64,000 nt of DNA. Source: a virus (Duplodnaviria > Caudoviricetes). This document shows, one piece after another, positions 2,914-60,928 of the stretch. Within the stretch, counting starts at the first letter, position 1. Each line of letters opens with the position of its first letter. The notes beneath the pieces were generated by a model. The model searched no databases, was not told the origin of the DNA, and saw only the letters and a program-made list of their open reading frames with translations. The DNA lies in IMG/VR virus record IMGVR_UViG_3300020577_010931, positions 26,951 through 90,950 of that record. One strand, written 5' to 3'. The position numbers and the translations under genes were made by a program.

Positions 2914-5900
2914 CCGACACCATCGGCAAGGCCACATATGAGATCGATGCCACCTCAGCAGAGGCTGGTGCGAAGAAGGTCGTTGCGGCCCTCAATTCGA
3001 TCAAGAAGGCTGTTGACAGCCTGAATAAAGCGAAGGTCACTGGTATCCAACAGTTGACCGCCGCTATTTCTGCGATGGCTCAGCTTCGCGCCCCGAGTGC
3101 CGCCCTCGTCTCTGGGATCACGGCACTCGGGGCTGCGATGTCCTCGTACAAGGCTCCTTCCCAGGCTGCGGTTACGAACACGCAGAATTTCCTGAACGCC
3201 CTCTCCAACATGAAGGCGGGCAGTTCTGCTGTCATCAATCGCATTGCGACTCTGAGTTCTGCGTTCGGCGCTTTCAAGGCTCCGACTGCGGCTCAGACGA
3301 AGAGAGTTGTTGACTTCTTCAATGCCGTCAACAGCCTCAAGCCGAGCGCGACATTCAATACGGTCGTCGCCGGACTGAACAAAGTTGCTCAGGCAGCCTC
3401 CGTCGCGGCGACGGAGATGGCGAAGCTCCAGACGATCATCAACGGCATCCATATGAGGATGACCGGCCTTCCGAGATCTCTGAGCGGGGCAGCCAATGGA
3501 TTCAAGAGCACGGCTCACTCGTCAGAGCTTCTGAAGAAGTCTCTGTTCGATACTGTCGCTGTTCTTCAGACTCTAACTGGATTCCTGGCGTTCAGAGAAA
3601 TCCTAGGAGCTTCAGCGAATCTAGAGACTGCTCGAAGCACTCTCCTGGGGGTCAGTGATTCAGCCAGAGAAGCTGCTGATTCGTTTTCCTATCTGGCTGC
3701 TCGGTCTCTCGATATCGGTGTTTCGCTCACTGAACTTGGTCGTCCTTTTGCTCGATTCACGGTCGCAGCCAAGAATGCGGGTTTCTCGACGAAAGAGATT
3801 CGAGACGCATTCGACAATGTCTCCGGAGCAGCTAGAAACTTCGGTCTGTCGGCTGCGGATACCGCAGGTGTCGTTCGAGCTCTGGAGCAGTCTCTCTCCA
3901 AGGGCAAGTTCATGGCTGAAGAAATCAGACTTCAGCTCGGTGATCGTCTGCCTATCGCTATGGCTGCACTGGCCCAGGCGACCGGAAAGACGACACGCGA
4001 ACTGAATAGTATGTTCGAGGCCGGTGTTCTCTTTACTGATCAGTATTTCAAGCCGTTCACTCAGGCTCTGTTCGACATGTCTGGTGGCGAGGAGGCTCTG
4101 GCTCGTAACAGCGAGGGTCTGAATGCCTCGCTGTCTCGGCTGCAGACTGGTTTCGCTCTGGTCGCGGATGCTATCGGTCGTGGTGGTCTGAACCAGGCGA
4201 TCAAGGATTTTGCTGATGCTCTAGTCAGCTTTATCACTTCGGACGATGGACAGAGATTCTTCCTGGGTCTCGGAAAAGTTGTGGCTATCGCAGGTCGCGC
4301 TTTTCTTCTCATCGCTGAGAATATCGATCGGGTCATCCAGGGAGCCATCATTCTCTATTCGGTGAAGCTCGGTCTAATGTTCACCTCTTGGGTGACTGGA
4401 GGCAGCGCGTTCATCAGAATACTTCGCCTCATGTTTGCTCAGATGGGGAATCTGACCAATCAGATGCGAATCCTTGGCGTTGCAATGAAGGGGATGTGGC
4501 TTTCGACTGGTGTCGGTGCCGCGATTGTTGCTATCACCTTCCTTATGACAGAATTGATTGGCACAACGAGTGCTCTGGAGGAGGCTACCATTGCCCAGAA
4601 TGATCTGGAAATGGAAAGAGCTCGTCTGGGAAATCAGAGCGCTGAGAGCATCCGAGATCTAGCTGCGGCGTATGCCGAAGCTGACGAAGAACAGAGAAAG
4701 GTTCTGTTGAATGAAGCCAATCTTCAGAAGATGCAGGCAGAGACGGCGGCCGCAAAGACTAGAACAGCGGCAAGCGATACTCTTGGAGATTACTTCCTTG
4801 AGATGCCCTATTCTTCTGTAGAACATCCTGGACAGGTTGATCAGGTTCCTATCTTCAACGTGGTCATTCCTGATGAGGCCACTCCGGAGGATAGAGTAGC
4901 TATTGAGTCGTACACCAAATCTATCATTGAGCAGATGAAGAACGGGTTCCAGGATCTTCCTCTTCTTAAGACGACTATGACTGACTTTGGAGCGGTCATC
5001 AATAAAGTCGCCACTAGCACTTCGGATACTGATTTTCAGGCGTTCGCGGTCACCTTTGGCGAACTGTATAAGAGCGTTGATGACACGACAACTTCGCTTG
5101 AACTGGCGCAGATGTTGATCGACGCCTACACTCAGGCTCAGCAGGGGGCTATCGAAGCGAATGGAACGGCTGCTGATTCTTTCCAGGAACTGTCGAAGGG
5201 TCTGACGGATTGGCACAAGGATATTGATGAAGCTCTAGCGAAGGAGCGTTTGAGGACGATTTCTCTTCTCGAAGGAGAAGATGCTGCGAAGAGAGTAGAA
5301 CTGACTGAGAAAGGAATGGCCGAAGCCTTGGGGCTTTCAGGAAGTCAGTTTTTGGATGAAAGAGATAAGATTCTTGAGTCCGTTGATGCTCTTATGGCGA
5401 GAATCAAGGCAAACGATCTTCTTGAGGCACAGAATAAAGCAGATGCAACTATAAAGAATCTGCAGGACGAAGTTCGTGTTCTCCAGGCTGTTCGTCTGGG
5501 CTACGAAGATTCTGTCGAGGTTGCTGGAAAGCTGATGGAGCTGACCAGAAATCTTCAAGCTGTCGGTGAAGATCCAGATGCCATTAAGGAGAGAGTTGCT
5601 GATCTTCGGGCCTTCCTTGAACTGAAACAGAAAGAATTGGACTTTGCCGATGCCGCGAAGACGAGAACTGATGTTGCTCGTGGTGTCGTAGACGATATCG
5701 CGACCGAACGTCTTCGCTACATGGCGTTGACGCAGAGCAAGGAAGCTGCCGATGCTTTTGCACTCGAGGCGAAAGCAATGGCTGCGACCCTGGGTCTCAA
5801 CTCTCAGGAAGCCGAGAAGTATCGCGACAGAATTCTTCGCCTCAATAATGTTCTGGAGAAATTCAAGACTCTCAACGAGAGAATTGAAGCTATCCAGGCG

Positions 5901-8090
5901 CTTAGAGGAAAGATGGATGACCTTGAGACAGAAATCTATCTTCAGAAGCAATTCAATGCTGGTCAGATCACCAATATCGAATTGGCGAAGCAGGAACTTG
6001 CTGCTCAGGAAGCTCTTTCCAAAACTGGCATGAACCCGGATAAGGTTAAAGAGCTCACTCTACAGTATAGTCAACAGCTTCAGGAATTGAAGAAACTTCA
6101 GGAATACCAGGATTCCAAGGAAACTCGGGTCAGTATTCTCGATAACCTCGAAAAGGAAATTGAGGCTCAGAGAGCGAAGACTATTGCATTGACTGAAGGA
6201 GAAGAGGCTGCTGCGCAGTACACACTGACCCAGGAGGCTCTGTCTGCAACTATCGGGATGACTGGAGAAGAGATTCAGCAGTGGCTGGAAAGCGCCATGG
6301 CTGTGAATCAGACACTTCAGGATATTACCGATACGAACAAACGTCTCGAGGCTACTCAAAACGCCGAAAAGACAATTGCTGACATGCAGGCTGAAAATCA
6401 GCTTCAACTTCTCTATAACATGGGGTTGATCGATTCCGTTGAATTGGCGAAAGAAGAACTTGCGGTTCGCAAGGCTTTGGAAGATGCCGATGTCGGTGCA
6501 GATGATGTTAGAAGATTGACTGAAGAGTGGAGAAAGGCTGCCGCTGAAAGAGAGAAGTATGCTGCTCAAGGGGCGGCCGAGGATCATCTCAAGGAGCTTC
6601 AGGATGAAATTGATGCCCTGGGTCTCGCCGGTGCGGCTCTAGACGAATACAATCGCGCCCGAGAGCATTCGGAAAATATTGAGAAGGGAGTGTCTCAGGC
6701 GACTGCTGATCAGATTTCGGCTGTTCAGGAGGTCATTGACGCTTATAAGAGATACGAAGATGCTATTTCGTCAAAGGATAAGGCTGCGGCGACGGCGGCT
6801 TATAACGAGCTGGTACGTTTGCATGAAAACGCACAGACGACTTCGAGTTTCATTGATCGCGCAATCGCCTGGCTTGAGAATCTCGGCAAGTGGGGTTCCT
6901 GGGCTGCTTCGATTCTAAAAGTCGTTGCTGACGTTTTCGGATTCCTTCATGGTCAGGGAACTCCGGATTTCGCGCTGCCCCAGGATCCAGCCACGATGGA
7001 TATTAAGTGGAGCGGCGGAGGCGGTGGAGGAAAGGATAAGCAGGACGTCTTCAAGGACTGGGCCGATGGTATCCGTGAGCGTATCGCGGATGAGCAGCTT
7101 GAGATGAAGACGATTGATATGACAGCAGGAGCGATTGAGCGTCTAAAGGCTCAGCAGGATCTCGAAAACGAGATCAAGAAAGAGGGTCTGACCCTCACTG
7201 CGGCGGACATTGCTGCTCGCGATGAGCTTCTCCAGAAATTGGAGCAGGAAATCGATGCTCGGGCTCGTCTCGAAGCTATCCACAATGTTCAGAAGACCCT
7301 GGATGATCTGAATCAAGAAGCTGAAGCTATCCGTATGACTCTAGATGGTCGTGCCAAGAGTCTGGAGATGGCGAAGCAGGAACTGGAGATCAGAAAGGCC
7401 CTGGGTGAAGTCGGGGTTCCGATTGCTGAAATCGATGGGTATGTCCAGTCGATTCAGTCGGCTACCGAAAGAAACAAAGAGCTGAATCAGCAGCTTGATG
7501 AGCAGCAGGCTCTCGCTGATGGTGTCGGTTCGGCTCTTTCTGACGCCTTCAAGTCAGCCATTCTCGACGCGAAGAGCTTCATGGAAGTGTTGGCTGATCT
7601 TGCTCTTCAGTTGGCTCAGCTCGCCTTCACTCAGTCGATCTTCCCGGCTATTTCCTCTGGGGCCGGTGACATTCTCGGTGGTCTCTTCAGCGCCATCGGA
7701 CTCGCGAAGGGCGGAGTTGTCTCTGGTGGAAACGTCCTGAACGAGTACGGTAAAGGATCAGTCTTCACTGGCCCAACTCCGTTCGCCATGTCTGGAAACA
7801 AGACTGGTGTGATCGGTGAGGCTGGTCCTGAAGCCGGCCTTCCCCTTGTCCGTATGCCGAATGGAGATCTCGGTGTCCAGTACATGGGTGGAAATGGTGA
7901 CAACTACACCGAGAACAACATTCACGTGAGCGTAGAGGGCGGAAGCTCTGGAAGCGCGGCAGATGACGAGAAGCTCGCGAACAAGATCGCAAAAACTGTT
8001 CAGCAGTCTCTTGATACTCGAATTGATCAGAGGCTTCAGAAGTGGACCAAGCCCGGTGCGGCGCTTGGTCGTGGAGGATTCGCGAGATGA
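2910..8090 (+). CDS. Tape measure protein
   Basis: 1726 aa, Ala/Glu-rich and helical, with a tape-measure domain (RALEQSLSKGKFMAEEIRLQLGDRLP) and a lambda-type C-terminus (AKGGV...GEAGPEAGLPL.RMPNGDLGV). Confidence 0.95.
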   Translation: MTDTIGKATYEIDATSAEAGAKKVVAALNSIKKAVDSLNKAKVTGIQQLTAAISAMAQLRAPSAALVSGITALGAAMSSYKAPSQAAVTNTQNFLNALSNMKAGSSAVINRIATLSSAFGAFKAPTAAQTKRVVDFFNAVNSLKPSATFNTVVAGLNKVAQAASVAATEMAKLQTIINGIHMRMTGLPRSLSGAANGFKSTAHSSELLKKSLFDTVAVLQTLTGFLAFREILGASANLETARSTLLGVSDSAREAADSFSYLAARSLDIGVSLTELGRPFARFTVAAKNAGFSTKEIRDAFDNVSGAARNFGLSAADTAGVVRALEQSLSKGKFMAEEIRLQLGDRLPIAMAALAQATGKTTRELNSMFEAGVLFTDQYFKPFTQALFDMSGGEEALARNSEGLNASLSRLQTGFALVADAIGRGGLNQAIKDFADALVSFITSDDGQRFFLGLGKVVAIAGRAFLLIAENIDRVIQGAIILYSVKLGLMFTSWVTGGSAFIRILRLMFAQMGNLTNQMRILGVAMKGMWLSTGVGAAIVAITFLMTELIGTTSALEEATIAQNDLEMERARLGNQSAESIRDLAAAYAEADEEQRKVLLNEANLQKMQAETAAAKTRTAASDTLGDYFLEMPYSSVEHPGQVDQVPIFNVVIPDEATPEDRVAIESYTKSIIEQMKNGFQDLPLLKTTMTDFGAVINKVATSTSDTDFQAFAVTFGELYKSVDDTTTSLELAQMLIDAYTQAQQGAIEANGTAADSFQELSKGLTDWHKDIDEALAKERLRTISLLEGEDAAKRVELTEKGMAEALGLSGSQFLDERDKILESVDALMARIKANDLLEAQNKADATIKNLQDEVRVLQAVRLGYEDSVEVAGKLMELTRNLQAVGEDPDAIKERVADLRAFLELKQKELDFADAAKTRTDVARGVVDDIATERLRYMALTQSKEAADAFALEAKAMAATLGLNSQEAEKYRDRILRLNNVLEKFKTLNERIEAIQALRGKMDDLETEIYLQKQFNAGQITNIELAKQELAAQEALSKTGMNPDKVKELTLQYSQQLQELKKLQEYQDSKETRVSILDNLEKEIEAQRAKTIALTEGEEAAAQYTLTQEALSATIGMTGEEIQQWLESAMAVNQTLQDITDTNKRLEATQNAEKTIADMQAENQLQLLYNMGLIDSVELAKEELAVRKALEDADVGADDVRRLTEEWRKAAAEREKYAAQGAAEDHLKELQDEIDALGLAGAALDEYNRAREHSENIEKGVSQATADQISAVQEVIDAYKRYEDAISSKDKAAATAAYNELVRLHENAQTTSSFIDRAIAWLENLGKWGSWAASILKVVADVFGFLHGQGTPDFALPQDPATMDIKWSGGGGGGKDKQDVFKDWADGIRERIADEQLEMKTIDMTAGAIERLKAQQDLENEIKKEGLTLTAADIAARDELLQKLEQEIDARARLEAIHNVQKTLDDLNQEAEAIRMTLDGRAKSLEMAKQELEIRKALGEVGVPIAEIDGYVQSIQSATERNKELNQQLDEQQALADGVGSALSDAFKSAILDAKSFMEVLADLALQLAQLAFTQSIFPAISSGAGDILGGLFSAIGLAKGGVVSGGNVLNEYGKGSVFTGPTPFAMSGNKTGVIGEAGPEAGLPLVRMPNGDLGVQYMGGNGDNYTENNIHVSVEGGSSGSAADDEKLANKIAKTVQQSLDTRIDQRLQKWTKPGAALGRGGFAR

Positions 8091-49568: not shown

Positions 49569-50483
49569 CTAGCTGGCGTCTTCGAGATCCTTGTCGGTGC
49601 GCCAGCCTTTGAAGATCGGGAACCGCGGCACGTCCTTCCATCCATATGGGCGATGCTCGAATGTCAGGATCTTCCCGAGATATGCTTCTCGATCATTCCA
49701 TATCTCGGTTCGCTCATCGTCATCAAACCCGGAACCTACGTCGAAGGTCTCTCCGGGCCACTTTGGAGACTCGCAGATGCAGGCTCCAAGATCTCCACGA
49801 CCAACCATGTTCTCCCGGTGACTAGACCGTTCGAGGTATCCCTGGGCATTGCGAACACCTTCGTTCGCATTGTGCATTCTCTCCTTGAAGCCGATGATGC
49901 GGGCTTCGTCGGTTTCCAGTCGAACCAGTTTGAGTAGGATGCCTTCCCGGACCGACGAACGACCGAACTTGTACGGAGCCTGTGGGTCACGGATCATTAC
50001 TCCTTCATATCCCAGAGACACGATCTTCTCCTCGTACTCCTTGAGTTCGTCGGTGTTCCGAATCAGATCATGAGGAAGAATCACGACCCTGTTCCCCTCT
50101 GGGTCTTCCCATTCTCTGCCATCGAGAAGACCGAAGCGGAATTGCCAAGGATTGTTTGGGTGTTCAAAGTGATCGAAGAGATAGACGGTGAACCGAGGCT
50201 CGCCCAGGATCGTGGACAACGCCTTCTGGGTCGTCCGATAGGTCAGCCTGGGTAGATTCGGCTCACCGACGATGATCTCACCGTCGCAGTGATAGAGACC
50301 CAGATGACTGAGTCTCTCCTGGGCGTAGAGGTTGGGGAAGGGCTTCAGATTTCGAGTAACGACAGAACCCTCCTGGGGATACCCCAGGAGGCGCATACCA
50401 TCGAGCTTCGGGCTGGCAAAGAGGGGAAACCGCAGTTTCCCGAAATCCTTCTCTTTGATCTTGTCAGCGAGTAGAGGGCGCAC
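49569..50483 (-). CDS. ATP-dependent DNA ligase
   Basis: SPKLDGMR (motif I KxDG); CDGEI; YEGVMIR; YKFGRSS..E..LLK; VGSGF; PRFPIFKGWR. Confidence 0.92.
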   Translation of the reverse strand: MRPLLADKIKEKDFGKLRFPLFASPKLDGMRLLGYPQEGSVVTRNLKPFPNLYAQERLSHLGLYHCDGEIIVGEPNLPRLTYRTTQKALSTILGEPRFTVYLFDHFEHPNNPWQFRFGLLDGREWEDPEGNRVVILPHDLIRNTDELKEYEEKIVSLGYEGVMIRDPQAPYKFGRSSVREGILLKLVRLETDEARIIGFKERMHNANEGVRNAQGYLERSSHRENMVGRGDLGACICESPKWPGETFDVGSGFDDDERTEIWNDREAYLGKILTFEHRPYGWKDVPRFPIFKGWRTDKDLEDAS

Positions 50484-51400: not shown

Positions 51401-51599
51401 CGAACCAAGCCATGCCGGAAATGATTCCGATGAGAAGTGAGATCACCAGGTGATGAACATAGGGAAGATCAAATTCCTGGAAAACATTGAAGGCAAGTAG
51501 CATCACCAGGGGCGAGATCAACGTCGCACCAAAGTACGATAGAACCAGATGAAGAACGACGCTCGCTTGGATCTTAGGCGGACGTCTATCTCGGTTCAT
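51273..51599 (-). CDS. Membrane protein with two TM helices
   Basis: Two hydrophobic segments and a charged C-terminus. Confidence 0.5.
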   Translation of the reverse strand: MNRDRRPPKIQASVVLHLVLSYFGATLISPLVMLLAFNVFQEFDLPYVHHLVISLLIGIISGMAWFVAFDAQALFNYKKHERAADARNELREYYRKQERLRESSEGDS

Positions 51600-51951
51600 A
51601 GTCGTCTCCTGGGAACCGTATGACCGGAACTTGTGCTTTCAACGCAAGGCTAACCATATTAGCCGTTCCAGTTTCTCCTGGAAAGGCAATGATGAGTTCA
51701 GGTTTACCTTCTTTTAGCATTAATTGATTTCTAATTGGACCAGCGGCTTTCTTGTAGCGATCCCAGTCCGCCGGGAAGTCGAGTTTCTCGATACCGCGAT
51801 CGATAGCCCACTGACGACCTAGAGTGTCGGCGCCTCTCGCCTTTCCGTTTATGACAAGTGTAATCCCGAGACCTCTATGGAGCCAATCCAGGAAGTCGTA
51901 CGTGGCCCATTGATTAGACCATTTCCGACCGCCACAGACTAGGACTCGCAT
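51586..51951 (-). CDS. DUF2493 / YspA-like SLOG family protein
   Basis: MRVLVCGGR; VING.ARGAD.LG..WA; FPADW..Y.KAAGPIRNQ.ML..GKP..IIAFPG..GT.NMV. Confidence 0.88.
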   Translation of the reverse strand: MRVLVCGGRKWSNQWATYDFLDWLHRGLGITLVINGKARGADTLGRQWAIDRGIEKLDFPADWDRYKKAAGPIRNQLMLKEGKPELIIAFPGETGTANMVSLALKAQVPVIRFPGDDYEPR

Positions 51952-51966
51952 AGAGACCTCGGGTGT

Positions 51967-52043
51967 TGGCGAACTCGCCGGGGCTCGAACCCGGAACCTA
52001 CAGCTTAGAAGGCTGTTGCTCTGTCCAATTGAGCTACGAGTTC
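51967..52043 (-). tRNA. tRNA-Arg (anticodon TCT), CCA encoded
   Basis: GAACTCG TA GCTC AATTGGACA GAGC A ACAGC CT-TCT-AA GCTGT AGGTT CCGGG TTCGAGC CCCGG CGAGTTC G CCA; full cloverleaf. Confidence 0.95.
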
Positions 52044-53671
52044 AGAAAGCCCTCCAGGACAGTCACGGCGCTGGCGTCGAACCCATTGATCAGGAGCGAG
52101 TCCGTATCCTTGGGATCGAGCGGGCTTCCGTTGGCCTGTCCCAGATCGAGACAGGCCAGCTTGATTCGACGCTTCTGATCCCTACGAAGACGAGTCATCG
52201 CCTGGGCGACGTGCCCGTTCCCGGCGTAGCTCTCGGTGTCGGTCAGAACGATGAGCGAGTCCGGCTTGTTCGGGCCGTCGCACTCGCGCACGAAAGCCTC
52301 CACAGCCTTGCTCATGTCCGTGCCGCCGCCCTGAGCCTTCCAGTCCAGACCGATCAGACCTGAACGCTTCCGGAGACCCGTATCGAACGACCAGACCGAA
52401 GCCTGCTCGTAGCGATTCTGAAGACAGATGCCGATTCCCAGGGCAGCATCCCAGCAGGAGATGATGTCCTTGCCCGACGTGGCATGGCTCATCGACTGGG
52501 ACTCGTCCAGCACGATGACATGCTTTCCCGGGCGACGCTCGAGGCTGCCCAACGAATCCATGAACTTCCGACCCAGGAGATCGGTCACGGAACGCATCGG
52601 GGTAAACTCCGAGTTCCGCGACTTCCCGCCCTTGCCTCCCGCCTGATAGAACTTCCAGGCGAGGAAGTAGTTGATCGGATGGACCTTCGCGTTGTCCTCC
52701 TCGGCCCAGGTCTGGACGGCCTGGACGTACATGTCCAGCATCTTCGGATCGTTGAAGATGTCACGACGCGTCAGGTTGCCGGCGTTGCGGACCAGCCACG
52801 TCAGTCCCTGCTTCCGGACGAGGAGCGCCTCCCAGACGGCCTTGTGCTTCAGCATCTCCGTCGGAATCATCTCCATGGTCAGACCATGCTCGAAGATGAG
52901 ATCGACGACGACCTTCGGCTCCTTGGCCTCCTGGGCCAGGAGATAGGCGCGAACCAGCGGCGGCAGTTCGCCAACACGCTCGCCCAGACGCTTCTCGAGA
53001 TCCTTGGGATCCTTCGTCGTCAGGAACTTGAACATCAGGTCCTGGGCACCGTTCTCCGGCTTCGGATGAGCGAGCATCAGCGCATCGCGCATGGCCCAGC
53101 CGTCGCGCTGACGATACTTGATGGCCTGGTTGGCCAGCGAGTCGATCGAGCGCTCCGTGAACCACTGGCCGACGTACTTGCGGCTCGCGTATCCCCAGCC
53201 GTGGAATCCCTCCATGTAGTCGATGAAGTGGAGGAGATGCGTGCCGATGCGGCAGTACCGCTTCAGACGCGACCACGCCTTCGTACGCTCGGCGACCGGG
53301 AACGTCGAAGACGTCAGGTACGCCAGAACGTACAGGGTCGGATCCTTGGACGCCGCGAGGCTGTTGTCGTTCACGTCGTCCATGACCGCGAAGATATCGT
53401 CGTACTTCCCCACCGAGGCGAGGTCGTTGACGATATTCACGAAGTCCTTGGTGAGCTTCGCTCCCTGGGCGTAGTAGGTTCCGTTCAGCGTTCCCGTGAT
53501 CAGGAAGCGACGGAACAGGTCGATGTCCTCCCGCTTGAAGGCGTAGCCTCCAGAGAGATTCTTGACCATCTCCCGCTCACGGCCGGGAATCGGCTTGGTC
53601 TGCGGGGTCTGTGCCAGCATGGCCGATCCCGGCCCTCTGGTCGCGAAATGTGAACGCATCGTCTTGGCCAT
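52034..53671 (-). CDS. Ro60/Rsr-like RNA-binding protein (TROVE + vWA domains)
   Basis: KNLSGGYAF...FRRFLITGT.NGTYY; R.GTHL.HF; GWG...RK.V..W; A.KYRQRDGW...D.L.LAHPK; LVRNAGNLT; vWA MIDAS LDESQSMS, GGGTDMS, LTDTE. Confidence 0.92.
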   Translation of the reverse strand: MAKTMRSHFATRGPGSAMLAQTPQTKPIPGREREMVKNLSGGYAFKREDIDLFRRFLITGTLNGTYYAQGAKLTKDFVNIVNDLASVGKYDDIFAVMDDVNDNSLAASKDPTLYVLAYLTSSTFPVAERTKAWSRLKRYCRIGTHLLHFIDYMEGFHGWGYASRKYVGQWFTERSIDSLANQAIKYRQRDGWAMRDALMLAHPKPENGAQDLMFKFLTTKDPKDLEKRLGERVGELPPLVRAYLLAQEAKEPKVVVDLIFEHGLTMEMIPTEMLKHKAVWEALLVRKQGLTWLVRNAGNLTRRDIFNDPKMLDMYVQAVQTWAEEDNAKVHPINYFLAWKFYQAGGKGGKSRNSEFTPMRSVTDLLGRKFMDSLGSLERRPGKHVIVLDESQSMSHATSGKDIISCWDAALGIGICLQNRYEQASVWSFDTGLRKRSGLIGLDWKAQGGGTDMSKAVEAFVRECDGPNKPDSLIVLTDTESYAGNGHVAQAMTRLRRDQKRRIKLACLDLGQANGSPLDPKDTDSLLINGFDASAVTVLEGFLNS

Positions 53672-53718
53672 CGTAGCCTCCTAAATCCCAAGGAGAATTC
53701 GCCTGGGGTACAAAAGCA

Positions 53719-53747
53719 TAGCGCCCGCCGGGTCTCGGCGGGCGCTA
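53719..53747 (-). terminator. Hairpin between the ncRNA region and Ro60 (terminator/attenuator)
   Basis: Perfect 12-bp stem TAGCGCCCGCCG/CGGCGGGCGCTA, followed on the - strand by TGCTTTTG. Confidence 0.65.
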
Positions 53748-53968
53748 GATGATTCACTCAGGGGTCGAGGGCTGCGACTCGGCGCAACACCCAACGACAG
53801 CTTCCACGACTAAGGGATCATGCAGACTACTTCAGGTCCATGTTTCCCCGCCAGGAGAGACCGACGGAATTCAGGGAAGAAACCCTATCCGCCTCGTGCA
53901 TGTATCACATGCTTCCCTGAGGTTCACAGATCAGGTGCCGGCCGGACAACTGCTCTGAGAATAACGGA

Positions 53969-54922
53969 GGACTGATGAGTTCGCTTGCGCAGTTGATGAA
54001 GGGTCAATCCACGACTTACGGAGTTTGAAGTCCGGGTCGAGGGATTGCTCGGTAGTGTGGTGAGCAATAACCTTCACACGGGCGACCAGTCCAATAGGTG
54101 AACCCGATGATATTGGCCGAGGGAGTCTACCAAAGCACTACAGCAGCACTAGGATAATCCTCAAACCACGACCGGGTCCGTGTAGGAGAATCCGATGAAC
54201 CTGAAAGAGGAGCGGGGCCATCTCTGGTCACCCTGGTAGTCTTGGAGGGATTTCACCTCCTGGCAGATAACCCTCAATCTACGACCGGATCCTTGTAGGT
54301 GAAGCTGATGAAAGAGATCGTGGGTCACGCGTCGTCGGGTGTAATAACCGACTGCCTTAACCGCTAGGCTACAGGTCCCTTGCGAGTCCTGATTGGATTC
54401 GAACCAATGTTTGATAACCCACTTGAGACGACCAGCTTCATGTCAGAGCCGAACCGATGAAACCTCTTGCGAGGGGACCCTCGCCCTTATGGTGGAGGGC
54501 GGGGTCGTAGCCAGCACTTTTTCTCCTTAGGAAAACGCTGAGCGGGACGACCGGTTCGGTTTAGGAGTCGAGTCGATGAGATGCCTTTCGGCGGTTAGGA
54601 CGGGTACCCCGCGGTGTGAACGCAGGACCGATAACCATCCAGGTGGGCGACCGACTCGAGATTTCGGTGGAGCTGATAAGGTGCCTTGCGGCTGAATGGA
54701 AAGCGGCTTTTCATTGAGAGTGAAAACGCTATCCGGGGCGACCAGCTCCATGCTAAGGACCGAACTGATGAGATGCCTTTCGGCGAGCGACAAGGGATCG
54801 TGCATTGAAGAACCCTCATCTAGGTCGACCAGTTCGGTAAATGGTGGAGCCGGCGAGATGCCTTTCGGCGCGAGGTCAGGAGGTCAGCTCATCCAGATGA
54901 TCCTGACAGAGCGGCCGGCTCC
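53969..54922 (-). ncRNA. Tandem array of nine Y-RNA-like structured ncRNA units
   Basis: Units (+ coordinates): 53969-54092, 54100-54179, 54188-54292, 54300-54440, 54449-54559, 54568-54659, 54668-54750, 54759-54838, 54846-54922. Each reads stem-GGUCG-N11-13-UUAUC-like box-variable domain-UCAUC-complementary stem. G.U pairs and GNRA loops fit only the - strand. Confidence 0.85.
54334..54408 (-). ncRNA. Circularly permuted tRNA-like domain inside the array unit at 54300-54440
   Basis: T arm AUUGG-UUCGAAU-CCAAU, then a GCAA-closed acceptor-like stem, then UA-GCCU-AGCGGUUA-AGGC D arm, then GUCGG/CCGAC anticodon-like arm. Confidence 0.8.
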
Positions 54923-55036
54923 GTGATTCTATTGTTCAAGATCCGTGAGGTCTGCTTCCAACCGGGGCCGAGCTTTGGACGCTCTGGGGGAACCTTCCGG
55001 TGCCCGGCCCCTTCATTGGATGCCACCAACAACCCC

Positions 55037-55065
55037 AAGGTACGCGGGGTGAAGTCTAGGCGCAA
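55037..55065 (-). promoter_or_regulatory. Putative sigma70 promoter driving the ncRNA array
   Basis: TTGCGC-N17-TACCTT on the - strand, the same TTGCnn-N17-TAnnnT pattern as the other promoters in the window. Confidence 0.55.
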
Positions 55066-55091
55066 GCCTAATTTTGCCTGACCGGTAAGTC

Positions 55092-55751
55092 TTAACGCGC
55101 CCGCATGCGCCAGAGACCAGCGATTTTCTTGAGCTCGAAATACTCGAGTTTCTCTTTGTTCATCTTCTCCATAAGCGTGTGGAGAGAGGAACCAGATACC
55201 ATCTTCCTGGGATTCAGGAACTCGTCAATGAAATGCCACGGATGATCAATGACCTGAGACTCATCCTCCGGGACAGAAGGAGTCCCGAAGGGGAGAGCAA
55301 GCTGAGTCGGCTTGAAGAGAGGCCACGGTTCCCACGGCGTCTTGCTGAGATCGAGACGCAGTAGAAGAAGCTCACCGAGCTCCCCGTTTTCGGCCCGTTC
55401 TCCTGGGACAGTCATCGTCGTGACCCAGGGCTTTTTGACCGAGATGTCCTTGGCCCAGATGTACTTGATTTCGCGGCTTGCCGCGTTGACCGAAATGATG
55501 GCCCAGGGATTTTCGCCGCGCAGCGACCGAAGAGTCTGATCGTTGATGGCGACGTTGCCGTAGGTCTGATTGACCCAGACGACGAGACCGTTCACCACCT
55601 TCTCGGGGTGACCCTTCTCGTGGAGATAGATGAAATCGTGGAGTCCTGGGGTAATCCCCGCCTTCTCCACCAACTCACGAGGTCTTTCCTCGTAGACGAG
55701 ATTCTGCTCGCCAAAGAACCGGTCGAACGTCTTCCTGACGATCGCCTTCAT
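55092..55751 (-). CDS. Hypothetical protein
   Basis: 219-aa ORF with AGGAGG RBS. Confidence 0.65.
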   Translation of the reverse strand: MKAIVRKTFDRFFGEQNLVYEERPRELVEKAGITPGLHDFIYLHEKGHPEKVVNGLVVWVNQTYGNVAINDQTLRSLRGENPWAIISVNAASREIKYIWAKDISVKKPWVTTMTVPGERAENGELGELLLLRLDLSKTPWEPWPLFKPTQLALPFGTPSVPEDESQVIDHPWHFIDEFLNPRKMVSGSSLHTLMEKMNKEKLEYFELKKIAGLWRMRAR

Positions 55752-58123: not shown

Positions 58124-60928
58124 GTGGGTATGGACTGGAAGCACTATCGTTCCGAGGAGGCCATCGCCAAGGCTCCTCGTCGAGATATCCTGGAGCGGTT
58201 TCTCGGTATCTACCGAAGAGTGGAGAACCGTAATCAGGTTCTTCACCTAGTTCGCATTAAAGACGGCATAACTGAAGGTGTCGTCTTCAGTTTGAATGAC
58301 CCAGACAGGATGTTCGCCTGGATCCAGGAATGGAATCCGAAGGGCTGGAACATCTATTTCACAGTCAATATCCCAAAGAATCTTCTGAATAAGAAACTGT
58401 CGAAGGAGGATATGGGTGCGGCCGTCTTCGTCCATGTGGACGTCGATTTCACACTTGCCGAAAAGAAAGAAGCTTCTGATGACGACGCCTATGCTGAGGC
58501 GTTGGAGAAACTCTATGCCGATATCAAGGGAAAGGTTCGCAAGGAACCAACTCTAACTCTTTTCAGCGGTAATGGATTTCAGCTTTTCTGGAAGCTGGAT
58601 GAACGTATCAATCTTCTCAAAGAACCGCTGGAAGCAATTGAAGATCTGAATAAGATCGTTGTCAAGTATTTCGAAGGTGATAAGAGTTGCTGGAACGTAG
58701 ACCGCGTGATGCGTTTTCCTGGGACGATCAACCATCCCAGTGCGACGAAGCTGAAGTACGGGTTCAAGACGACAACGTCCGATATCATGGAGACGTCGTC
58801 TTCAGAAATTTCCGCCGGCGAGGTTTTTAGTCTCTGGTCAGACGGGAAGGTGATTCCTTCGAACGTCATTGATTCCACAACGAGCAAGGAAACTTTGGTT
58901 GATGAAATCGATTGGAACACTCCTGTTCCAGAACGATTTCTTCGGATGGTGGCTGGAAAGGAGAAACGTCACGAGAAAGTTCGTATCAACTGGGAACTGA
59001 GACGCGAGGAATTCGAACCAGATGCTGATCTGTCTGGAAGCGGTTATGACTTCCAGATGACCAAGTTGCTGCGTCACAGAGGATTCAACATCTCTGAGAT
59101 TGCGGCTGTTCTTATGGCACATCCTTATGAGGGTGGAGTCAGAGACCAGAAGAAATACGATACTCTTCAGAAGAGAGAACGTCAGATTGAGCGAGCCTGG
59201 AAAGCCGGCAAGTTCTCTGACGGTGATGAATTCATTGCAGCCATAGAGAACATTGACCCAGAGAACTTCTCGCTAGACGAGATGTTCGGGCAGATGCGTG
59301 ATATGAACATGGGCGAAGGTGATGTCGCTCGTGTTCTCAAGAAGATTTCCCAGGTGGCGAAGCTGCCCAGGAATTCGATCAACGCTCAGTACGATCAGTT
59401 TCTGCGTGGATCTTCAGAAGATGAGTTCTCGCTGAACGACGCAGGCAACGGTCAGAGAATCCACAAGTATTTCGGAGATATTCTCAAGAAGCAGAAGGAT
59501 ATCTTCTTCAAATTCAATGGCGCACGATGGGAGAAGATCGAAGATATCGATGACCTGAAGTCTCTCGTTATCGAAGCTGTGTCACACTGCGGAATCGATA
59601 AGTGGATTCACAAGTGTTCTGACATGGCGAAGATTCGTGCTGCGGTGGCAGCAGCGAAGGAAGAGCTCAAAGTAGACGATACCTATTTCAACCAGTCTTT
59701 CTGCGGTCATCTTTTGAATGTGAAGAATGGTACCATCGATCTCCGCACAGGGGAACTTAGAGAATTCAATACGGCTGATCGTATCACACATCAACTCAAA
59801 ATTGAATATCACAAGGACGCCAAGGCTCCGACCTGGATGTCATCTCTGAATCTGTGGATGCAGGGAGACCAGGAGATGATTGATTTCCTGCAAGTCATTT
59901 CTGGGATCATCATCGCAGGAGATCCAAGAGAGCAGAGATTCTTTCTGTTCTATGGGCCGGGCGGTTCGGGTAAGTCTACCTATCTCAATGCGTTCTATGA
60001 AATTCTGGGAGACCTCGCGAAGACTATCAAGAACACCTCGTTGCGTCTCAAGACGAATGATTCTCATCCCGTCGATATGATGAACTTCCTGGGTTCCAGG
60101 TTGGTCAAGACTGACGAAATCCCAGAGGGAATGCGTCTGGATACGTCGGTCATCAAGAGCGTGGTCACGATGGAGAAGATCACAGCCCGTGGCATGCGGG
60201 AGAATTTCCAGGAGTTCGATCCTACTCATACTTTCATCATGATGGGCAACCATCGTCCTATGGTGACAGCGACTGACGAGGGTATCTGGCGTCGTCTGAT
60301 CCAGGTGGACTTTGGATATGCGATCCCGGAGCATGCCCGTGATCTACATATGGATGAGAAGCTTCGAGCGGAAGCTGAGGGTATCCTGGCGTGGGCTGTG
60401 GAAGGAGCCGTTCGCTGGAATCGAGAAGGACTTCGTATTCCGTTCAAGGTACAGAATGCCTCGAAAGACTATCGTCATGATAGCGATAGTCTCAGTAATT
60501 TCTTCGAGATTTGTTGTCGTTTCGACAATAGTCCTGCGGTAGGAGATAGAGGAACTTCAGCCGTACTTCTCTACGATCGATATTCGCAGTGGTGCGAAGA
60601 GAGTGGCCTCGATCCAATGGGTCGAAATTTCTTTCAGAAAGCGATGATTGAGAGAGGACGTAAATATGAAATGGTTTCAGATGCTCGGATGCAAGAACCC
60701 AAGATGGGGTATAAGGGCGTCTTTCTGAAAGATTACGATAGATTTAACATGACCCAGGAGCAAGTGAATCAGGCTGCGCTCGTAATGCAGGATGAACTCA
60801 GTGAAGCTGACCTTGCAATGAAAATGACAAAGACGATTGTCAAAGCTCTAGAAGAAACCATTGGAAAATCAGCCGCCGAGCATTTTTTGCGTCGCTTGCG
60901 TGCTGGGAGCTCTAGGGAGCCCATGTAA
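58124..60928 (+). CDS. Primase-helicase (RepB/AEP-like primase + D5-type SF3 helicase)
   Basis: WNIYFTVN; FVHVDVD; FSGNGFQLFWKL; NVDRVMRFPGTIN; LLNVKNGTIDL; YGPGGSGKST; DEIPEG...IK..VT.E.I.AR; GIWRRL. Confidence 0.92.
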   Translation: MGMDWKHYRSEEAIAKAPRRDILERFLGIYRRVENRNQVLHLVRIKDGITEGVVFSLNDPDRMFAWIQEWNPKGWNIYFTVNIPKNLLNKKLSKEDMGAAVFVHVDVDFTLAEKKEASDDDAYAEALEKLYADIKGKVRKEPTLTLFSGNGFQLFWKLDERINLLKEPLEAIEDLNKIVVKYFEGDKSCWNVDRVMRFPGTINHPSATKLKYGFKTTTSDIMETSSSEISAGEVFSLWSDGKVIPSNVIDSTTSKETLVDEIDWNTPVPERFLRMVAGKEKRHEKVRINWELRREEFEPDADLSGSGYDFQMTKLLRHRGFNISEIAAVLMAHPYEGGVRDQKKYDTLQKRERQIERAWKAGKFSDGDEFIAAIENIDPENFSLDEMFGQMRDMNMGEGDVARVLKKISQVAKLPRNSINAQYDQFLRGSSEDEFSLNDAGNGQRIHKYFGDILKKQKDIFFKFNGARWEKIEDIDDLKSLVIEAVSHCGIDKWIHKCSDMAKIRAAVAAAKEELKVDDTYFNQSFCGHLLNVKNGTIDLRTGELREFNTADRITHQLKIEYHKDAKAPTWMSSLNLWMQGDQEMIDFLQVISGIIIAGDPREQRFFLFYGPGGSGKSTYLNAFYEILGDLAKTIKNTSLRLKTNDSHPVDMMNFLGSRLVKTDEIPEGMRLDTSVIKSVVTMEKITARGMRENFQEFDPTHTFIMMGNHRPMVTATDEGIWRRLIQVDFGYAIPEHARDLHMDEKLRAEAEGILAWAVEGAVRWNREGLRIPFKVQNASKDYRHDSDSLSNFFEICCRFDNSPAVGDRGTSAVLLYDRYSQWCEESGLDPMGRNFFQKAMIERGRKYEMVSDARMQEPKMGYKGVFLKDYDRFNMTQEQVNQAALVMQDELSEADLAMKMTKTIVKALEETIGKSAAEHFLRRLRAGSSREPM

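Follow-up and report, generated by a model that had tools for sequence, protein, structure and literature searches.

The conservation of Ro60 and the Y RNAs extends from bacteria to humans, and the protein is among the major autoantigens in lupus and Sjögren's syndrome. To our knowledge, the function of the variable part of a Y RNA has been established in few cases, chiefly the tethering of PNPase. In bacteria, Y RNA genes share the strand of rsr and are found no more than 2-4 kb from it, YrlA and YrlB of Mycobacterium smegmatis come from one precursor, and Y RNAs beside Ro60 have been published for 22 phages (PMC4201824). Y RNAs tether Ro60 to PNPase in Deinococcus and Salmonella (PMC4201824) and in the Thermus phage phiLo (PMC12135203), whose Ro60 binds two upstream Yrl RNAs (Yrl1 and Yrl2) as well as PNPase (PMC12135203; PDB 9KOP, 9L5Y). 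In vertebrates, Ro60 is bound at a helix interrupted by one bulged cytidine, and a UUAUC motif that opens the loop on its 5′ side is conserved between nematode stem-bulge RNAs (sbRNAs) and vertebrate Y RNAs (PMC4726728, PMC4450293); paralogues with different loops number four Y RNAs in humans and 18 sbRNAs in C. elegans (PMC4726728). What is known already is that Y RNAs occur beside phage Ro60 genes, one or two per locus. In this work we analyse a 64,000-nt stretch of a Caudoviricetes genome (the window; bases 26951-90950 of the 90,950-bp IMG/VR record IMGVR_UViG_3300020577_010931, CheckV completeness 78%), where nine small-RNA units stand in tandem upstream of a phage Ro60 gene. With high probability, this array consists of nine distinct Y RNA genes serving the Ro60 that is encoded just downstream on the same strand.

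Judged by its sequence, the phage gene is a canonical Ro60. Its product carries the Pfam domains TROVE (PF05731, 3.3e-13) and vWA_Ro60 (PF25045, 5.3e-11), its residues 22-543 match Deinococcus Rsr (2NVO, E 2.8e-56) and human RO60 (9NEN, 2.5e-45) in the PDB, and it aligns end to end with Xenopus Ro60 (1YVP, E 4e-44 (4.1e-44)). The nine units, 77-141 nt long and back to back with spacers of 7-8 nt, take up 954 bp (53969-54922, minus strand, the Ro60 strand), that is, 298-1251 nt upstream of the Ro60 start codon and inside a 1.4-kb gap. The initial annotation had placed nine minus-strand units here, with 11-13 nt between handle and box; all nine were recovered in place, and the measured spacing covers the same range. 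They are listed below in minus-strand order, each with its closing stem, the 5′ handle up to the box, hairpin, 3′ box and folding z-score (z), where given.

52034..53671, - strand: Ro60 (Rsr) gene, 545 aa, AGGAGG ribosome-binding site upstream; PHROG 850, RNA-binding protein
54846..54922, - strand: unit 1, 77 nt; GGAGCC/GGCUCC; GGCCG-N11-UCAUC; GCC-GAAA-GGC hairpin; UCGCC (compensated handle); z -3.73
54759..54838, - strand: unit 2, 80 nt; ACCGAACU/AGUUCGGU; GGUCG-N13-UUCUU; GCC-GAAA-GGC hairpin; UCAUC; z -3.63
54668..54750, - strand: unit 3, 83 nt; UGGAGCU/AGCUCCA; GGUCG-N12-UUUUC; GCC-GCAA-GGC hairpin; UUAUC; z -3.53
54568..54659, - strand: unit 4, 92 nt; UCGAGUC/GACUCGA; GGUCG-N13-UUAUC; GCC-GAAA-GGC hairpin; UCAUC; z -2.67
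54449..54559, - strand: unit 5, 111 nt; CCGAACC/GGUUCGG; GGUCG-N12-UUUUC; CCUC-GCAA-GAGG hairpin; UCAUC; z -5.22
54300..54440, - strand: unit 6, 141 nt, YrlA-like; UGAAGCU/AGCUUCA; GGUCG-N11-GGGUUAUC; predicted permuted tRNA mimic; UCAUC
54188..54292, - strand: unit 7, 105 nt; GGAUCC/GGAUUC; GGUCG-N11-GGGUUAUC; UCAUC; z -0.10
54100..54179, - strand: unit 8, 80 nt; GGACCC/GGGUUC; GGUCG-N11-UUAUC; UCAUC; z -2.33
53969..54092, - strand: unit 9, 124 nt; GGACU/AGUCC; GGUCG-N12-UUAUU; UGC-GCAA-GCG hairpin; UCAUC; z -3.28

Six open reading frames (ORFs) of 55-92 aa overlap the gap (53500-55065); they have no Pfam match, and a coding reading of the gap was dropped.

The evidence that carries this interpretation is the handle closing each unit, in which a variable stem is followed by G-C, G.U, U-A (C-G in unit 1), a bulged C and G-C. 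Both ends of every unit align in a plain MAFFT alignment, at an overall identity of ~38%, and in this alignment all 95 of the 95 cells of the terminal helix, [stem]GG(U/C)-bulged C-G against (U/C)(A/G)(U/C)C, are paired. When the 3′ partner is displaced by 1-3 columns, pairing falls to 18-47% of the cells, so the claim of the initial annotation that the closing stems differ and nevertheless all pair stands against this control. Compensatory two-sided changes affect eight of the 12 terminal-helix pairs, and the closest paralogues differ by clean double swaps (UGGAGCU/AGCUCCA vs UGAAGCU/AGCUUCA; GGAUCC/GGAUUC vs GGACCC/GGGUUC; CCGAACU/AGUUCGG vs CCGAACC/GGUUCGG). In unit 1, the first in the direction of transcription and the last in the initial annotation, GGCCG/CGCC replaces GGUCG/CAUC while the pair beside the bulged C is retained; the compensatory double change to GGCCG/UCGCC noticed earlier is thus there, and the bulged C is invariant in the predicted structures of all nine units.

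The strand is equally clear. Eleven G.U cells in the handles would turn into A-C mismatches if read on the plus strand, and folding z-scores are more negative on the minus strand in nine of nine units (mean about -3.1 vs -1.7), in agreement with the strand earlier deduced from G.U wobbles. Two other proposals stood in part. A 5′ box-like motif is present throughout, with UUAUC exact in only four units and UUAUU, UUUUC (twice), UUCUU and UCAUC in the others, and the 3′ box, described as UCAUC, is UUAUC in unit 3 (54668-54750), where the inner pair becomes G.U. GNRA tetraloops are present, as proposed, in hairpins that precede the 3′ handle in six units, and the stems of these hairpins covary (GCC-GAAA-GGC, GCC-GCAA-GGC, CCUC-GCAA-GAGG, UGC-GCAA-GCG). 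As to chance, a loose descriptor of the handle gave eight adjacent hits here, where a shuffled 91-kb genome yields ~3.6 over both strands. When the nine units were made into a covariance model (R1), the check suggested in the initial annotation, the model recovered only its own nine units at E <= 10 in the whole record (the window and the other 27 kb), and it matched other phage loci.

Those loci show that the handle is not a peculiarity of this phage. The comparison set comprised the best 80 of 354 IMG/VR Ro60 matches, found with an alignment of Ro60 relatives, and five cultured-phage loci, with flanks of 3.5-4 kb. In three contigs R1 found a total of four units, immediately upstream of Ro60, with the handle [stem]GGGUCG(AA)...GGGUUAUC...CAUC[stem'] and one GGCCG/CGUC variant. 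Two rounds of rebuilding led to model R3, with which 187 hits at E <= 5 were obtained in 798 kb; nine of them are the window's units and 178 lie elsewhere, in about 70 of the 85 loci, all on the Ro60 strand and nearly always within ~1 kb of the gene. Since about five false hits were expected over both strands and none was seen on the opposite one, the R3 hits are specific. In other loci the handle reads [stem]GGG(U/C)CG...GGGUUAUC...(U/C)(A/G)UCC[stem'], and the family consensus has a lower stem GG(U/C)-bulged C-G, which a short internal loop separates from a purine-rich strand that closes with GGG and is followed by UUAUC; GGGUUAUC is nearly invariant in the related phage units, many of which keep AA after the handle (GGGUCGAAG). 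Over 41 units from 23 loci, 93.8% of 438 handle-helix cells are paired in an alignment that is fitted to the model and hence biased that way, with slid controls near 40%; the pair beside the bulged C is U-A in 23 and C-G in 16 (16/39). As the same bulged-C handle and GGGUUAUC box recur in about 70 of 85 Ro60 loci, always on the Ro60 strand, the units are best read as members of a widespread, Ro60-linked family of phage Y RNAs.

As a negative control, IMG/VR was scanned with the motif GGGTCG-N8-13-GGGTTATC (14-nt core), giving 80 loci and 580 kb of DNA. The motif matches were mostly due to chance, with only 15 covariance-model hits in this motif-selected DNA, and do not amount to a census; of five contigs with confirmed hits that were examined, four carry TROVE and the fifth is a 9-kb fragment. 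A prefiltered RNA-model search of five whole records, less sensitive than cmsearch on the loci, added no distant units. The Rfam YrlA model, built from bacterial RNAs, overlaps R3 units in other arrays at sub-threshold scores (E 1e-5 to 7e-8), and neither the window nor any of 16 further scanned loci has a unit that reaches its gathering score.

Tandem arrays of three to six or more units with spacers of 5-11 nt are common beside phage Ro60, among them the following (positions are those of each fetched locus).

5327-6050, locus L066/L071: six units downstream of Ro60, the first five tightly packed
5132-6376, locus L049: six units downstream of Ro60, in three adjacent pairs with gaps between
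Locus L042: five contiguous units and two more, upstream of Ro60
Loci L011, L069/L072 and L086: five units each, upstream of Ro60
3504-3924 (MZ820085.1 ~127791-128211), locus L008, Mycobacterium phage ScoobyDoobyDoo: three tandem units in an unannotated gap upstream of the annotated Ro-like gene
Locus L007, Streptomyces phage SparkleGoddess: four units scattered among tRNA genes

The six-unit arrays downstream of Ro60 in L066/L071 and L049 mean that the position of an array relative to the gene is not fixed; equivalent arrays also lie downstream in L080, and 1-2 kb off among tRNA genes in L007, L024 and L042. Y-like arrays run on into tRNA arrays in L011, L042, L069 and L007, and some units (in L070 and L066) enclose a complete fold accepted by the tRNA model. 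Each array examined holds one or two YrlA-like units and several others, the window one against eight. ScoobyDoobyDoo, a cultured and genetically tractable phage, offers a convenient system for testing such an array. The nine contiguous units of the window are the most among the 85 sampled loci; they are the top of a distribution and not a singular event, multi-unit arrays being common beside phage Ro60. The idea from which this work started, that nine Y RNAs dock by a common handle and differ in their bodies, therefore stands as the best reading, with the qualification that the arrangement itself is not unique.

Within the handles, the bodies differ. At gathering scores, Rfam found only the tRNA-Arg gene beside Ro60, and neither ARAGORN nor Rfam RF00005 called a tRNA in 53969-54922. 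In a permissive Rfam scan, unit 6 reached 22.4 bits with YrlA (RF02553; E 0.09, gathering score 69) and 23.8 bits with the tRNA model, the latter, also sub-threshold, being attributed to the following domain.

54334..54408, - strand: tRNA-like domain of unit 6; T arm with UUCGAAU loop, acceptor-like hairpin closed by GCAA, D arm and anticodon-like arm

As modelled, the body of unit 6 is a circularly permuted tRNA mimic of YrlA-like design. Its GGGUUAUCAAACA and T arm are found also in a unit upstream of Ro60 in Microbacterium phage Big4, and this YrlA-type unit was the only match when the nine units were compared by blastn with all the fetched loci. The eight remaining units carry unrelated modules, with neither a tRNA-like domain nor a YrlA match. 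The Rfam comparison, which the initial annotation had also suggested, hence relates unit 6 to YrlA below threshold and leaves the vertebrate Y_RNA model without a match at E <= 10.

Around the array, further elements bear on how it might be expressed.

54923..55091, - strand: leader, 169 nt between ORF 55092-55751 and unit 1; -10-like TAGAAT at 54931-54926, 4 nt before unit 1
54093-54099, 54180-54187, 54293-54299, 54441-54448, 54560-54567, 54660-54667, 54751-54758 and 54839-54845, - strand: spacers, 7-8 nt, CCUA-rich
53757..53968, - strand: structured tail, ~210 nt between unit 9 and the terminator, without a handle
53719..53747, - strand: intrinsic terminator-like hairpin, 12 bp (10 G-C), then UGCUUUUGUA (U tract), 48 nt before the Ro60 start codon

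The terminator stem was also matched in the permissive Rfam scan, and 53672-53968, terminator included, folds with a z-score of -3.1. The tail gave no covariance-model match and might represent either an additional small RNA of another kind or a leftover of processing. The spacers (CCUACAA, UCCUACAC, ACCUAUU, CUCCUAAA and CCUUAGCA among them) are rich in CCUA, a feature not found in other arrays, and may be a host-specific processing signal. N-CC follows the closing stem in seven of the nine units, whereas the spacers of other phages' arrays are A/U-rich instead; N-CC as a tRNA-like 3′ end signalling processing in general was rejected, since among phage arrays it is confined to this one.

Processing, polycistronic transcription, binding to Ro60 and roles as decoys, tethers or adaptors we infer from known Y RNAs. 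The array and its ~210-nt tail would be transcribed as a single precursor of ~1.2 kb ending at the terminator 48 nt before the Ro60 start codon, and this precursor would be cut within the CCUA-rich spacers; processing from one precursor has its precedent in YrlA and YrlB of M. smegmatis (PMC4201824). Each product would then dock on the outer face of Ro60 by its bulged-C helix, in the way known from animal and bacterial Y RNAs, and present its own module, so that one protein could form up to nine different particles. By analogy with the PNPase tethering and the gating of the ring cavity attributed to known Y RNAs, the modules would most probably recruit different host RNA-processing proteins or mimic different host RNAs, and in this way redirect the host's RNA decay or weaken RNA-directed defences while the phage infects. 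Searches for RtcB, a CCA-adding enzyme and an Rnl2-type ligase found none of them in the record (78% complete), which has only one tRNA, and the partners would therefore be host proteins. A role in counter-defence is plausible because the Ro60-like protein of coliphage Bas63 is reported to counter the Ppl defence system (bioRxiv 10.1101/2024.10.10.617714).

The genes nearby place the locus in the phage genome. The sole tRNA gene of the 91-kb record overlaps the last 10 nt of Ro60, and directly downstream of both lies a gene for a SLOG-family protein, which may belong to the same module as Ro60.

51967..52043, - strand: tRNA-Arg(UCU)
51586..51951, - strand: SLOG-family protein, 121 aa (Pfam YAcAr 2.7e-17; PHROG 289)
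49569..50483, - strand: ATP-dependent DNA ligase
58124..60928, + strand: primase-helicase

The ligase and the primase-helicase flank the locus on either side, so Ro60 and its array sit in the replication/early region.

Nine working Y RNA genes are not the only way to read these data. It might be that only the YrlA-like unit 6, perhaps with one or two more, works as a Y RNA, the others being duplicated relics or stem-closed RNAs independent of Ro60 (free decoys or tRNA-like processing substrates); after all, unit 6 alone resembles a curated family, units 1-3 and 5 have a degenerate 5′ box, the fold of unit 7 does not improve on its shuffles, and the non-YrlA bodies have no sequence relatives in other loci. 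Decay would lose the pairing, however, whereas the handle is perfectly paired in nine of nine units in spite of an identity of ~38% and is altered by clean compensatory swaps, and units of the non-YrlA kind with the same handle form the majority beside Ro60 in other phages, which makes this reading unlikely. The same strand, the place directly upstream, the lack of an identified promoter in between and a terminator just before the ribosome-binding site of Ro60 would also suit a cis-acting leader of the Ro60 mRNA, in which Ro60 binds the handles in its own 5′ untranslated region and controls terminator read-through or translation. Arrays that lie downstream of Ro60 (L049, L066/L071, L080) or 1-2 kb away from it (L007, L024, L042) do not fit such a leader, and titration does not need nine different bodies; we hold it to be very improbable. 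Lastly, in a replication/early module bounded by a ligase and a primase-helicase, the repeats could act as DNA, for instance as protein-binding iterons or recombination sites, or they could be a chance cluster of inverted repeats. Compensatory changes and G.U pairs that work on one strand only, stems that vary between units where iterons keep their sequence, the Ro60 strand followed by all 178 hits elsewhere and a chance rate of ~3.6 scattered hits per genome together exclude this for practical purposes, and we give it almost no credence.

That the array is a set of nine Y RNA genes is thereby the interpretation we retain, and several observations weigh against it. The bacterial GNCGAA motif is half kept, with GUCG in eight units, GCCG in one and AA not conserved over the nine. 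The whole fold of unit 7 is no better than its shuffles (z -0.10), its handle being intact. An upper stem is predicted in nine of nine units, yet similar short helices are common in shuffled interiors, and a simple helix search for it against such interiors was not significant in most units. No promoter was identified, the leader having neither a sigma-70 consensus site nor a motif that recurs elsewhere in the genome. No Rfam gathering score was reached by any of the nine units, nor was there a match to the vertebrate Y_RNA model at E <= 10. Finally, DNA and protein searches found no close relative of the phage: near and distant DNA searches with the array against 50,697 phage records matched nothing, and a single-query search of IMG/VR with Ro60 found no close relative. 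The best Ro60 identity is 32% among 353 phage records, and the best local identities in a collection of 5.8 billion proteins are 28-37%; with relatives this distant, no orthologous array can be aligned unit by unit.

In the literature and in Rfam we found no published tandem array of many diversified Y RNAs, a passing mention being possible. What this locus adds is a canonical Ro60 with the longest array found, carrying an animal-like handle, and what the survey adds is that phage Ro60 genes as a rule have multi-unit arrays beside them, which current catalogues miss. Nine Y RNAs behind one promoter-sized leader and beside one Ro60 would make a compact natural experiment in module swapping, offering nine candidate effector modules whose partners pull-down could identify, and the arrays may belong to phage counter-defence, in the manner of the Bas63 Ro60-like protein (bioRxiv 10.1101/2024.10.10.617714). 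One may speculate further that phage Ro60 accepts any of a library of plug-in RNAs, as a universal socket would, nine of them in this case, each steering the ring and the host nucleases it recruits towards its own target among host RNAs and defence factors or serving as a decoy for one, and that the phage handle (the bulged-C helix with GGGUUAUC) is the signature of animal Y RNAs and nematode sbRNAs itself, a single eukaryotic-prokaryotic lineage, against the published view that bacterial and vertebrate Y RNAs are not homologous. We offer this tentatively, as a possibility on which we would not yet wager. If true, it would make the locus a multi-target, RNA-based system of takeover or anti-defence; the near-identity of the phage handle with the animal and nematode signature bears in any case on the origin of Y RNAs.

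Compared with YrlA and YrlB (PMC4201824; RF02553), the array has in common a position no more than 1.3 kb from Ro60 on the same strand, ends that pair in a long stem with the presumed Ro motif, GUCG fitting the GNCG of GNCGAAN0-1G, one tRNA-like unit with canonical T and D arms, and more than one Y RNA per locus. It differs in having nine units where those loci have one or two, in not conserving the AA of GNCGAA and in eight units without a tRNA-like domain; unit 6 itself, unlike YrlA, retains a separate anticodon-like arm, and its 22.4 bits fall short of the gathering score of 69. With phage tRNA gene arrays it shares small-RNA genes packed tightly in tandem, whose short spacers require endonucleolytic processing, although its units are closed by a Ro handle and not by an acceptor stem, and no tRNA was found in it.

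The plan of vertebrate Y RNAs and nematode sbRNAs (RF00019, RF01656) is that of these units as well: the lower stem has its bulged C within GGUC(C)G, and after an internal loop and an upper stem, which is only predicted here, UUAUC (exact in four of the nine units) stands at the 5′ end of a variable loop. Human Y4 and Y5 read GGUCCGA-N8-GGGUUAU. Set against the vertebrate and nematode RNAs, the phage handle has one base pair fewer between the G.U pair and the bulged C, and the nine units gave no match to RF00019 or RF01656 at E <= 10, so that the plan is common while membership by that test is absent. In eukaryotes, the Y RNA and sbRNA genes are scattered or form separate polymerase III transcription units, unlike the tight tandem seen here. 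Another phage comes closer: in locus L081 (IMGVR_UViG_3300014205_000458), three tandem units lie upstream of Ro60 at 2962-3266, of which the one at 2962-3031 scores 38.4 bits with RF01656 (gathering score 38), its outer neighbour 34.2 bits, and the middle unit, YrlA-like, 43.2 bits.

Among the described systems, phiLo, with Y-like RNA genes directly upstream of a phage-encoded Ro60, provides the model for the mechanism proposed here. It has two RNAs to the nine of this array, and its protein is distant from the present Ro60 (E 3e-7, N-terminal half only), which, unlike the phiLo protein, is close to Deinococcus Rsr and animal Ro60.

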